In this document: positions 52,865 through 57,721 of the stretch, in pieces
Layout: every line of letters begins with the position of its first letter
Numbering within the stretch: the first letter of the stretch is position 1
Source of the DNA: Vezdaea acicularis
Lineage: Eukaryota
Direction: 5' to 3'
DNA length: 64,000 bases
Assembly: GCA_026025075.1 (NCBI GenBank)
Contig: JAPEUI010000056.1
Span: 1 to 64,000 of the forward strand
Translations under genes and position numbers: made by a program
Notes under the pieces: generated by a model
What the model was told of the DNA's origin: nothing
What the model saw: the letters and a program-made list of their open reading frames with translations, nothing else
Database searches by the model: none

Positions 52865-54470
52865 CTACATTAACGCTGTCTCATCTAGCTTGCCTTGATA
52901 TGCAAGTATGTGGTGAAGGTTGTTTAATGCCCAAACAATTTTGGAATGCTCTCTGCCAAAGGTTCTTGTAATCTTCTCCAGGACATCTTTCCGCATTAGC
53001 TCTGCCTCATCGAGCTTGCCCTGGTGTTCAAGTGTGCTTGCAAAGTTGATCATCGCCAAGATAGTCTTGGGATGCTCTCCGCCGAGGACTCTTGTACACT
53101 TCTCCAGGACATCTATCTGCATTGATGCTGCCTCATCTAGCTTGCCCTGGGCTCTAAGTGTGCATGCAAGGTTGTTCATCGCCCCGATGGTGTCGGGATG
53201 CTCTTTGCCAAGGTTTCTTATACACTTCTCCAGGATATCTATCTTCAGTGAGGCTGCCTCGTCTAGCTTGCCCTGGTCTCCAAGTGTGCTTGCAAGGTGT
53301 ATTATCGCCCCAATGGTGTTGGGATGCTCTTTGCCAAGGATTCTTATACTCTTCTCCAGGACATCTATCTGCATTGACGCTGCCTCATCTAGCTTGCCCT
53401 GGGCTCTAAGTGTGCATGCAAGGTTGCTCATCGCCCCGATGGTGTCGGGATGCTCTTCGCCAAGGTTTCTTATACACTTCTCCAGGACATCTTTCCTCAT
53501 TGACGCCGCCTCATCTAGCTTGTCGTGGTCTCTAAGTGTGCGCGCAAGGTTTTCCATCGCCATGATGGTGTCGGGATGCTGTCCGCCGAGGATTCTTGTC
53601 CTCTTCTCCAGGACATCTATCTCCATTGACGCTGCCTCATCTAGCTTGCCCTGGGCTCTAAGTGTGCTTGCAAGGTTGCTCATCGCCCCGATGGTGTTGG
53701 GATGCTCTTTGCCAAGGTTTCTTATACTCTTCTCCAGGACATCTATCTCCATTGACGCTGCCTCATCTAGCTTGCCCTGGTCTCTAAGTGTGCATGCAAG
53801 GTTGCTCATCGCCCCGATGGTGTCGGGATGCTCTTCGCCAAGGTTTCTTATACACTTCTCCAGGACATCTTTCCTCATTGACGCCGCCTCATCTAGCTTG
53901 TCGTGGTCTCTAAGTGTGCGCGCAAGGTTTTCCATCGCCATGATGGTGTCGAGATGCTTTCCGCCGAGGATTCTTGTCCTCTTCTCCAGGACATCTATCT
54001 CCATTGACGCTGCCTCATCTAGCTTGCCCTGGGCTCTAAGTGTGCTTGCAAGGTTTTCCATCGCCATGATGGTGTAGGGATGCTCTCCGCCGAGGACTCT
54101 CGTACTCTTTTTCAGGACATCTATCTGCATTGACGCTGCCTCATCTAGCTTGCCCTGGTCTCTAAGTATGTATGCAAGATTGTTTATTACCCAGATGGTG
54201 TGGGGATGCTCTCTGCCAAAGGTTCTTGTAATCTTCTCCAGGACATCTTTCTGCATTAGCTCTGCATCATCTAGCCTGCCATACTTTTCAAGTATGATTG
54301 CAAGGTTGTTTATCAACCAGATGGTGTCGGGATACTCTCCGCCAAAGGTTCTTGTACACGTCTCCAGGACATCTATCTGCATTGACACTGCCTCATCTAG
54401 CTTGCCCTGGTCGCTAAGTAAGCTTGCAAGGTTGTTCATCGCCCAGATGGTCGTGAGATGCTCTCCGCCA
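52865..54470 (-). repeat. 126-bp tandem repeat array encoding the TPRs, including a near-identical 378-bp three-unit duplication
   Basis: GCTGCCTCATCTAGCTTGCCCTGG and close variants recur at 126-nt periodicity; the segment from 53423 is repeated at 53801. Confidence 0.95.
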
Positions 54471-56051
54471 AGTATATCACTGCATCCCTTCACCAGGAAT
54501 GTCTGCACAACTAGGGCTTCTGCATATTTCCCTATGTCACGAAGAAACCCACCTGTCGTGAACAAGAGACTTAGAGCGCCCTCATCATCAAGTCCAGCTG
54601 CTCCCCACGCACGTGAGACATTGCTAAAGTTTGCGATAACATGTGGAATGATTCGTAGTTTTGGGGCCAGATCTGCCTGTTCGTCCGGTATAACTTGCAC
54701 TATCAATTGAAGTGCTGTATAACTATATCTCCCTTGCTCGTCCAGGGCCAGTCGATCGTATCCCCATGCATGCACGAGCTTGTGCATTGAATAGCTATTT
54801 TGATCTTGTCTCCACTGAAGTAGTGAATACTCTTGGAGGATCCGTAAATAATCTTCGACATTGTATGTGGTGGTCATTTCTTCTGGCGCAACCATAAAGG
54901 GGCATGACAGCGTGTGTGCGACGTCATACCCTACATTACAGATGAGACCCATAAAGATGTCGTCGGAGTTCAAGCATGAGAGGAGCGCCAGGAATTGAGC
55001 TGCCGGTCTACAACGTCGCTCGATCGCGCGGTACGACGTCTCCCACGTTGTTAAAACACTTTCACCATACTGATGAATGACCTTCCTTGGCTTCTGACTA
55101 AGCAGCTCTTTTCTTCTCTGACAGTATTCAATAAGGTACTGTCCAAGATCCGAGGCAATACGTGGAGTTTGGGATACATAGTAGCCAGCCAGATTGACTG
55201 CCAAAGCAAGACATCCAAGCTCTTTGACAATTGCCTTCACCTCCACCTCTGACTCTTGCGATAGGTCTTTCAGCTTTGCAGATTTCATGAACAGTTCTGA
55301 TGCCTCAGAGAGCTCCATCCTTCCCACTTCTATTGATACTGCCATGGGTATATCTTTTGCTATCGAGCTTCTAGTTGTGATGATCGTCTGTACTTTAGGT
55401 GCATCTAAAAGATATTGCATTATATCAAAAGAATGCTCATCTTCCTCCTCGCTGATCGCATCAGCGCTGTCGAAGATGAAGAGCCATCGTCCATCTTTTC
55501 TATGGAACCAGCTCTTTACTGCTAAGATAATATCTTCCACCTTTGGCAGATCCGTTTCTTTTATCGTGTATGCATTGAAGAGCCGTCGGTAGATCCCCAC
55601 ATAGTCGCGCTCAATTGATTGGCGGCTTCCTGCCTCGATCCAGAACAGTGCAGAGTAGTCATCTTGGTACTCCTGAAGATAGCTGGAAACAAGCTGCGAC
55701 TTGCCTACTCCCCCAAGGCCATAAACAATTACTAGAGCTACCAGATCATCATGTGATACTGTATTAATGTGATCATGGAGCTGCTGCTTCAGCTTTTGGT
55801 GAAGTGTTGGCCGCTTAACAAAGGTTGCTACTGGCCTGCGCCAGGATTTTGAATAGGGAGCGATAGAACTAGCCCGAGCCGCGGCGTTCAAGTCTAAATG
55901 GAACTGCAATTATTATCCCTGATTTTCTTTGAGCTTGAATGGATGGCTGACTTGTGGTATCTCCGCTGTTGTTGCCTATGATCACATAGCTGTTCTCGGC
56001 GTAGACACTTCCCACTCGATTTGACCCTTGCTCGATCCTTGTGTTTGCCAT
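52865..56051 (-). CDS. Fungal NLR: N-terminal amyloid-like motif, NB-ARC (STAND) and 13 high-identity 42-aa TPR repeats
   Basis: Walker A GLGGVGKS, Walker B WLFIFDSAD, GCLALAV, MHKLVH and kinesin-light-chain-type TPRs. The ATG ORF 55869-56051 joins the long ORF in frame if intron 55951-55894 (GTCAGC...TTTAG) is spliced. Confidence 0.88.
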
Positions 56052-56363
56052 TGAGTTGATTCACTTTTTCATATAGGCGCTCATCACAATAAGAATATGG
56101 CGTGACCAATACAAACAGTCTGTAGTTGGATCGTTCGCTCAGGCAGTTTGAGAGATGAACGAGCACCGCTCCAGACGCTGCCGCCGCTGCTGGCATCTCA
56201 GCCTTGTGGTCTAGAAGCACCATGCTTGAGCTGACGTGTCAGTAGATTGTATCTTCTGCGAGGCCTTTGAAATACTATGGCTTGAAAAGCTGCGCATGGT
56301 AACAGTCTCCAATATAGCCCTGATTTTCTACTATCAGAAGGTCAGACGCGTAATCTTTCAGGT

Positions 56364-57721
56364 ATGGACTCGTCCTCTGGACAGTCGATGAGGCTGCTGT
56401 CTCTGGGTAAGTCTTCTACCAGCTCAGATCGATTTGACTTATCCCTAAGATATTCTAGATGGAGGCGGCATCCGTGGACTGTCATCACTTTACATACTGC
56501 AAAACATTATGGAGAAAATACGATTTATCTATGACTATGATAACGAACCCTTGCCTTGCGATCACTTTGATCTAATATGCGGTACTAGTACCGGAGGGTA
56601 TGCTTAATTAAATAACCCATGCAGTCATTCAAGCGATGGTGCAACTGAGACTCATAGCATTATTGCCTTGATGCTTGGCCGACTCCGCATGTCTGTTAGT
56701 GAATGCATCGAGAGTTACCTAGGAATGAGCCAGACGGTCTTCGGTCAGCCAAATAAAATCACCCATCGGGAAAAGTTTGATCCAATTGCTCTGGAGCGAG
56801 CCGTTCAAGATATGGTTGGGCGAAGACTTGGGGACAGACACGCACCCCTCTTTGACCCTACGTGCTGCAAGACGTAAGATCTCAGTACCTTCATCGTTTT
56901 GGCAAGACACTGATGGAAAGCTCACTAAGCGTAGATTTGTATGCACATATGACAAGAAAGCTCTTGGAGGCTCACCAACCCTGCTCAGGACATACAAGAC
57001 AGGGTCTGCTCTTATACCTTGTACCATCTGGGAAGCCGCAAGGGCGACGTCTGCTGCGCCAACCTTCTTTCCCTCTATTCAATTTGGGGGGATCCATTAT
57101 ATCGATGCCGGCATCGGATGCAACAATCCCACGAAGATCATTCTGAAAGAAGCCAAGTCTTACTATCGTATGAAGAATTACCCAGCGACAGTACCTACAT
57201 GTATAGTCAGCCTTGGTACGGGTCAAAAAGATATCATCCAGCTCCACAAGGCAGCTTCAACGTTTTGGTTCAAGGACCGAGTAGGGCTAAGCGTTGCTCC
57301 AGCACTCGCAGAGATTGTGACTGACTGTGAGAACACTCACGACGAGGTGACACTGATGTGCATAGATGGAAACATGGCAGATAGGTACTACCGCTTTAAC
57401 GTGCCTCAGGGGATGCAAAAGATCGTGCTAGATGAATGGGAGAAAGCGGACGATATCAAGACATATACTGGTAAGTATCTGAGCCTAAACCAGACTGAAC
57501 ATGATATGGAAAGATGTGTCAAGAATCTACGCAGCGGTTTGACCAGTCACCCTGGAATAGCAGAGTCAGACCAAGAGAATCGCGATGGTATGGCTGGGGA
57601 TAGATTATATGTTACTCAAGGCGATAACACTCAGTATGGATCAATTTCTGCAGTCAACAGCCGTGTATTTCTGGGAAATTCTGCTGGCTTCAACTTCGAC
57701 CATTTTGGTAGGGGCAGATGA
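56364..57721 (+). CDS. Patatin-like phospholipase with C-terminal HET-s-like amyloid motif, 4 exons (introns 56407-56458, 56598-56657, 56874-56935)
   Basis: Spliced LLSLDGGGIRG (oxyanion), GTSTG (catalytic Ser), WEAARATSAAPTFF, YIDAGIGCNNPT (catalytic Asp), SLGTG and YYRFNV; tail QGDNTQYGSISAVNSRVFLGNSAGFNFDHF. Confidence 0.92.

Follow-up and report, generated by a model that had tools for sequence, protein, structure and literature searches.

A divergent receptor and patatin gene pair

The window analyzed here (a 64,000-nucleotide stretch of contig JAPEUI010000056.1, assembly GCA_026025075.1, of Vezdaea acicularis) contains two divergently transcribed genes, an NB-ARC/TPR NOD-like receptor (NLR) on the minus strand with its ATG at 56051 and an intact, stand-alone patatin on the plus strand with its ATG at 56364, whose products carry a common short motif at the N-terminus of the receptor and the C-terminus of the patatin. 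The head-to-head arrangement, with 312 bp between the two genes, had been described in a first-pass annotation of the sequence, and its coordinates and features all agree with ours. The features of the cluster are as follows:

56364..57721, plus strand: patatin-like phospholipase gene, four exons, 394 residues (Pfam match; exon junctions as in relatives)
56364-56406, 56459-56597, 56658-56873, and 56935-57721, plus strand: exons of the patatin gene (gene model)
57608..57688, plus strand: motif at the patatin C-terminus, YVTQGDNTQYGSISAVNSRVFLGNSAG, separated from the stop by 10 residues
55952..56051, minus strand: NLR exon 1, 33 codons, encoding the N-terminal motif (core at about 55962-56039)
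55894..55951, minus strand: predicted NLR intron of 58 nt (GTCAGC...TTTAG; in-frame GT..AG model)
52865..55893, minus strand: NLR exon 2, encoding NB-ARC and 42-residue TPR repeats, stop codon included (Pfam match)
56052..56363, no strand assigned: divergent intergenic region of 312 bp (from the gene coordinates), presumably a shared promoter

The patatin matches the Pfam Patatin family (PF01734) and has kept its glycine-rich DGGGIRG, its nucleophile elbow GTSTG (GxSxG), and its DAG with the catalytic aspartate (DxG). At all three exon junctions its sequence agrees with that of P0446, P0011, and P0442, which are full-length relatives. The AlphaFold2 model of P0446 has a confident patatin core and a C-terminal region of 56 residues (339-394) with predicted local distance difference test values below 50 and no secondary structure, from which the motif tail of this relative is predicted to be disordered in the monomer. 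The low confidence in this region fits a flexible linker followed by a tail that would stay unfolded until it is templated.

Exon 1 of the NLR (56051-55952) encodes MANTRIEQGSNRVGSVYAENSYVIIGNNSGDTT. Among the in-frame GT..AG candidates, the 58-nt intron leads from exon 1 into an exon of 1008 codons that ends at 52865, and the spliced product of this model, with 1042 residues, matches the length of protein P0121. The source of P0121 is annotated as a metagenome-assembled genome of V. acicularis, a lichen-forming fungus, and the protein, compared in the NB-ARC part over residues 1-420 of exon 2, is 100% identical to the window NLR there and opens with the identical exon-1 peptide. The sequence at the spliced junction (..GDTT/NLNAAARA..) resembles the GLTINxTAAA linker present in relatives. 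Pfam identified an NB-ARC domain (E 4e-9) and 12-13 TPR_10/TPR_12 repeats in the NLR and no domain in the 33 residues that precede the linker and the NB-ARC, where a short motif stands in place of an effector domain.

The DNA encoding the TPRs (52786-54472) is composed of tandem units of 126 nt (42 residues) in 13.4 copies with 80% matches, and has in addition a super-period of 378 nt (three repeats) with 85% matches, suggestive of recent duplication in blocks, a pattern shared with other fungal NLRs whose repeats are internally conserved. The tandem array extends about 80 bp beyond the NLR stop at 52865. On the minus strand, the TPR frame runs on past this stop through 52700-52864, a region with one further repeat-like stretch and two more stops, and the array was probably once longer.

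A motif common to NLR N-termini and enzyme C-termini

The N-terminus of the NLR and the C-terminus of the patatin have in common a motif of ~28 residues with 12 identities in 27 aligned columns, as the first-pass annotation had proposed. The Smith-Waterman score of the two peptides (BLOSUM62) is 56, relative to 24.4 +/- 4.1 for shuffles of the NLR peptide, with none of 5000 shuffles reaching 56, and when all six frames of the 64-kb window were scanned with the NLR peptide, nothing but the peptide itself scored higher than the patatin tail. A recent DNA duplication was considered as the origin of this likeness and rejected: none of the six inverted repeats found between 55800 and 57800 joins the two motif-coding stretches, and for this reason we place the likeness at the protein level only. 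The motif is short and of low complexity, properties that would favor a likeness produced by chance or composition, and yet the outcome of the shuffle test and the conservation of the motif, position by position, in dozens of relatives refute that explanation, to which we assign virtually no probability.

To describe the wider distribution of the motif we rely on a hidden Markov model (HMM) built locally from 23 instances (alignment A2), with the qualification that some of the proteins scored with it are also in A2. The family consensus is roughly LxIxQGGSxFGxxxVxGGxxFQGNFxG. When the last patatin exon was the query, the motif was present in 46 of the 120 patatin relatives listed, always within 25 residues of the C-terminus, and among the 56 closest relatives listed it was present in 45, the remaining 11 being truncated or degraded fragments. 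The named patatin carriers are lichen-forming fungi (Imshaugia, Candelaria, Bathelium, and Teloschistes), and one patatin that is 96% identical to that of the window, P0001, has the same tail but for one residue. On the receptor side, with the NB-ARC part as query, an N-terminal motif was found in 16 of the 120 NLR relatives listed. All 16 belong to the 46 whose P-loop is preceded by 75 or more residues, and they span the Lecanoromycetes, Dothideomycetes, Eurotiomycetes, and Geoglossomycetes. The exon-1 motif of the window NLR aligns without gaps with eight other NLR-side motifs in A2. In two close NLR relatives, P0131 and P0132, its place is taken by a motif that agrees at each position with HRAM3 as described in the literature (PMC4518210).

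The motif is not confined to receptors and patatins. A search of longer proteins with the A2 profile produced 79 matches at E<=10, which fell on the N-termini of NB-ARC/TPR proteins, the C-termini of patatins, and two other enzymes, P0405 (Abhydrolase_6/DUF676, from Aaosphaeria arxii) and P0406 (PNP_UDP_1), both of which have the motif at their extreme C-terminus, so that three enzyme effector families carry it. Effectors of the Abhydrolase_6/DUF676 and PNP_UDP classes are already on record in sigma, PP, and HRAM-type systems, and it is by a short motif common to NLR N-termini and the C-termini of unrelated effectors that fungal and bacterial amyloid signaling motifs have been defined (PMC9815663).

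Several patatin tails depart from the consensus. That of P0054 has a glycine to aspartate change and glutamine-rich runs (RITQDDFFFQDHNVMYDDFQFQNNF) and looks like a mutated copy of the motif, possibly affected by repeat-induced point mutation. The tails of three other patatin relatives (P0244, P0245, and P0351) end in a different sequence rich in glycine, asparagine, and glutamine (e.g., ..NYAGHNINQIGSIGG..); P0244 and P0245 match Pfam Patatin and P0351 is without a match. Patatins may be coupled to more than one motif type.

The two window motifs have diverged from the family together. Among the 22 other instances, the top match of the window NLR motif is its own patatin, though NLR-side motifs otherwise resemble each other, and the window patatin tail has as its best match the tail of a related patatin, P0041, with its own NLR ranking second of the 22. 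Of the 16 conserved columns, the same seven hold a residue other than that of the family majority in both window motifs, and at four of these seven the deviating residue is identical, one being an asparagine found in no other instance. An aliphatic residue also replaces the near-invariant glutamine of FQGN in both. These shared deviations and the mutual ranking are good evidence, at the level of sequence comparison, that in this lineage the two peptides have evolved in concert.

Recurrence of the pairing and ancestry of the receptor

The first-pass annotation had likened the layout to nwd2/het-S-type clusters and had proposed a search of fungal genomes for patatins beside motif-bearing NLRs. 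The layout of a motif-NLR next to a motif-bearing effector proved to be real and to recur in other fungi: among lichen-forming fungi, patatin and motif-NLR genes adjoin each other in five or more additional loci or species. A metagenome scan returned 17 loci, including one (L002) in which the two genes are head-to-head with matched motifs (..TICQRGNQFGDTRVSGGNIIQGNVVG on the NLR side and ..LRIEQGGSRFGNVNMSGGSLNQGNFVN on the patatin side) and in which the NLR has an intron after the motif at the position equivalent to that of the window NLR. In L003 and L004, which are the same in sequence, a motif exon is also head-to-head with a patatin. Among annotated genomes, a patatin (005854) lies between two NLRs (005853 and 005855) at consecutive locus tags of Candelaria pacifica, and a motif-NLR and a motif-patatin occupy consecutive tags in both Teloschistes chrysophthalmus (007464/007465) and Xanthoria steineri (008265/008266). 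The Candelaria motif-NLRs flanking the patatin (P0429 and P0388) are near-identical. A candidate tandem patatin in Teloschistes (P0430, of the same cluster as the Teloschistes patatin) was rejected, as its sequence proved it not to be a patatin. Elsewhere in the scan, the upstream DNA is absent from L005, L013 is a fused patatin-NB-ARC gene, and L001 has an inverted duplication of NLR 5' regions, with stops inside, around its motif-patatin (about 8700-9200 on the minus strand and 11100-11600 on the plus strand). The pairing is conserved, yet the loci readily rearrange and decay.

In PLP-1/HET-Z, which among fungal allorecognition NLRs is the best studied, the effector is a patatin, and the first-pass annotation had regarded the window cluster as a split PLP-1. 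That view is apt as far as domain content is concerned, and fused patatin NLRs are present among the homologs of the window patatin. It does not extend to an origin by splitting. The window NB-ARC is 39-49% identical to those of 14 of the 16 motif-bearing NLRs (the other two are 35-39% identical over shorter stretches). Of 23 fused patatin NLRs, 17 match it in their nucleotide-binding region at only 21-28% identity, and six have no match. As the NB-ARC is closer to motif-NLRs than to fused patatin NLRs, simple fission of a PLP-1-type gene is unlikely. Judged by its sequence, the window receptor is a member of a motif-NLR clade that serves several effector types, and a patatin gene apparently gained the tail that matches.

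Elsewhere in the window, a 482-residue open reading frame (51141-52589, plus strand) that matches Pfam DUF7924 (E 8e-48) lies beside the 3' end of the NLR. The region 4076-45490 has housekeeping genes (an inositol polyphosphate kinase, a MYST acetyltransferase, threonine synthase, ESF1, a protein kinase, and an MFS transporter), by which the chromosomal context of the module appears normal.

Proposed amyloid-type templating and comparison with known systems

It is established that an NLR can template an amyloid fold onto a separate effector in the case of the pore formers HET-S and HELLP, and the same has been suggested for SesB-like lipases and for PNP_UDP enzymes. By analogy with the NWD2/HET-S, sigma, and PP systems, we consider it probable that the window cluster is a two-gene NLR/effector module for cell death or immunity in which the receptor activates the patatin by amyloid-type templating. 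The short motif of the NLR would do the signaling that an N-terminal effector domain does in other receptors, and the patatin carries the matching motif at the end of a C-terminal tail that is probably flexible. Binding of a ligand to the variable TPR array would lead to oligomerization of the NB-ARC, and the clustered N-terminal motifs would then form a co-operative cross-beta (beta-arch) nucleus. This nucleus would template the same fold onto the patatin tails, and the resulting polymer would concentrate the patatin domains and so switch on hydrolysis of membrane lipids.

The last of these steps has a possible structural precedent. The solved folds nearest to the P0446 model are those of the lipases CapV and CapE of the cyclic oligonucleotide-based antiphage signaling system (CBASS), followed by plant patatin, and CapV and CapE compare with the patatin core at TM scores of 0.65-0.76 and 19-23% identity. 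Ligand-bound filament forms are among the structure entries for both CapV and CapE, and filament assemblies are therefore on record for the patatin fold. As these lipases are activated by filament assembly, it is plausible that clustering driven by amyloid formation would likewise activate the window patatin, a step which we infer from them.

Several observations weigh against this interpretation. Neither motif peptide matched an amyloid model in Pfam at E<=10 (the lone match, to Corona_NS4 with an E of 0.085, is attributable to chance), and the motif profile had no match among PDB sequences at E<=10 and so none to a solved amyloid. The effector has one copy of the motif, compared to two in HET-S. 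For every member of the family the amyloid state is deduced by analogy, and the splice that joins exon 1 to the rest of the NLR is predicted from the gene model and from homology. At related loci, the motif exon of L003/L004 precedes about three TPRs only and no NB-ARC, the motif-patatin of L001 is flanked by inverted NLR fragments that contain stop codons and an NLR motif was not found at this locus, and in L006 a patatin fragment abuts TPRs. Lastly, the co-variation of partner motifs that the first-pass annotation had anticipated is evident in the joint divergence of the window pair but not across pairs: with five independent pairs, 13 of 120 permutations reached the cognate sum, which is not significant, and the corresponding values were 42 of 720 for six pairs and 7 of 24 for four pairs.

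The resemblance to the HET-s repeats noted in the first-pass annotation found no backing in the profile searches above, and an hhalign comparison of the motif with the HRAM3-like N-terminus of P0131 gave a probability of 8% (P 0.004). In an HRAM, by definition, position 19 is a glycine, positions 5, 8, 10, 16, and 18 are hydrophobic, and position 15 is arginine or lysine (Daskalov 2015, PMC4518210). By inspection, the window patatin motif fits this definition at R15, V16, L18, G19, and N20 and departs from it at Q5, S8, and S10, and the window NLR motif fits at Y10, V16, I18, and G19 and departs at R5, S8, and Y15. The HRAM-like positions are thus upheld for the C-terminal half and not for the first half, which in the patatin is one residue off the HRAM register. 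The family consensus has a glutamine at position 18, as described for HRAM4 (PMC4518210). None of the 23 motif instances fits the PP (NxGxQxGxN) or PUASM (FxGxGxQxxGxGxF) patterns or a RHIM core pattern, and the Pfam sigma models had no match in the window NLR, the patatin, or the motif peptides. S1 Table of the Wojciechowski (2022) survey gives the label "noasm" to two carriers of the present motif, the NLRs OCL01597.1 and OCL06050.1 (PMC9815663). Since no profile evidence ties the motif to HET-s, we treat it as HRAM-like at best, and it may possibly constitute a separate family.

The same observations could be accommodated if the motif were a non-amyloid docking tag, by which one-to-one binding, through beta-strand pairing or a third protein, recruits the lipase with no self-propagating polymer. 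The lack of a match to known amyloid models and the single motif copy on the effector are in keeping with such a tag, as is the side-specific conservation of the motif (HQEGS..GLTIN on NLRs and ITQGGS on effectors), which could mean that the two sides have asymmetric roles. However, sequence of an identical type on both partners favors homotypic stacking over a lock-and-key interaction, the motif is rich in glycine, asparagine, and glutamine with alternating hydrophobic residues, and the gene layout and mix of effector families are those by which published amyloid signaling motifs were defined (PMC9815663, PMC5485727). We therefore regard a docking tag as unlikely.

It is also conceivable that the module is a decaying relic in which an inherited likeness between the motifs is no longer functional. 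NLR decay at related loci is what this would predict, and within the window the TPR frame that continues beyond the stop at 52865, through a repeat-like stretch with two further stops, and the loss of the near-invariant Q and F of FQGNF from the motifs could be taken as signs of it. Against this, both reading frames are open in all exons, DGGG, GTSTG, and DAG are intact, the motifs have changed jointly at the same columns, unlike drift in dead genes, and a patatin 96% identical to that of the window (P0001) has kept the tail but for one residue. On balance we think a relic quite improbable, and templating of the patatin by the receptor remains our preferred reading.

With somewhat less assurance, we lean toward a broader proposal, that the window pair is the founding example of an undescribed motif family (QGGSxFG...FQGNFxG) which serves NB-ARC/TPR receptors of lichen-forming and other ascomycetes and at least three kinds of enzyme effector, with patatin its main client through amyloid-driven filament assembly. 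The 2017 review of Loquet and Saupe stated that patatin/NB-ARC/TPR proteins had not been found in two-gene form (PMC5485727), and the window locus and its relatives fill this gap; if the broader proposal is true, the family would supply the very arrangement that the field had noted as missing. No patatin effector with an amyloid motif was found in full-text literature searches or in passages of PMC9815663 and its preprint, PMC5485727, PMC12881547, PMC12258605, PMC10197012, PMC13449251, and PMC4518210, in agreement with the first-pass suggestion that such a coupling was uncharacterized. The 2022 survey had used a Patatin profile as a search seed (PMC9815663), and no patatin is entered in its readable pair tables, the string PF01734 having no occurrence in the readable supplementary tables (S3, S5, and S6 among them). 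The motif family is probably absent from published lists; the S7/S8 HMMs and Fig E of S1 Text of the same survey (PMC9815663) may bear on this. The module is a case of known signaling logic with an undescribed effector coupling, and it adds a motif family that the survey models left unflagged in two carriers (PMC9815663). It would also be a tractable test of whether amyloid polymerization can activate a soluble lipase, and it identifies lichen-forming fungi as rich in such modules and, as a source of them, little explored.

Among known systems, the window cluster is most readily set beside nwd2/het-S of Podospora anserina and the HRAM pairs, in which a short-motif NLR likewise adjoins an effector gene with the same C-terminal motif and the receptors are of the NB-ARC/TPR or NACHT type (PMC4518210, PMC5485727). 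The effector in those systems is a HeLo or HeLo-like pore former that carries two repeats, r1 and r2, whereas here it is a patatin lipase with a single copy of a motif that matches no HET-s profile and whose first half is off register at hydrophobic positions 5, 8, and 10. In the sigma (het-eN/sesA/sesB) and PP (PNT1/HELLP/SBP) systems, and in those based on the PNP_UDP-linked motifs NLR12 and PUASM, amyloid motifs tie NLRs to enzymes such as SesB-like lipases and PNP_UDP proteins (PMC9815663), and the present motif is similarly found on an alpha/beta-hydrolase and a PNP_UDP protein, although its sequence pattern is different from theirs. CapV and CapE, in contrast to the window patatin, are bacterial, triggered by cyclic nucleotides, and devoid of an amyloid tail. 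PLP-1/HET-Z and PaPLP1 have the same patatin, NB-ARC, and TPR domains and, presumably, the same output, a regulated cell death dependent on the lipase; there the three domains are in one polypeptide, whereas in the window they are encoded by separate divergent genes whose products are joined by the motif alone.

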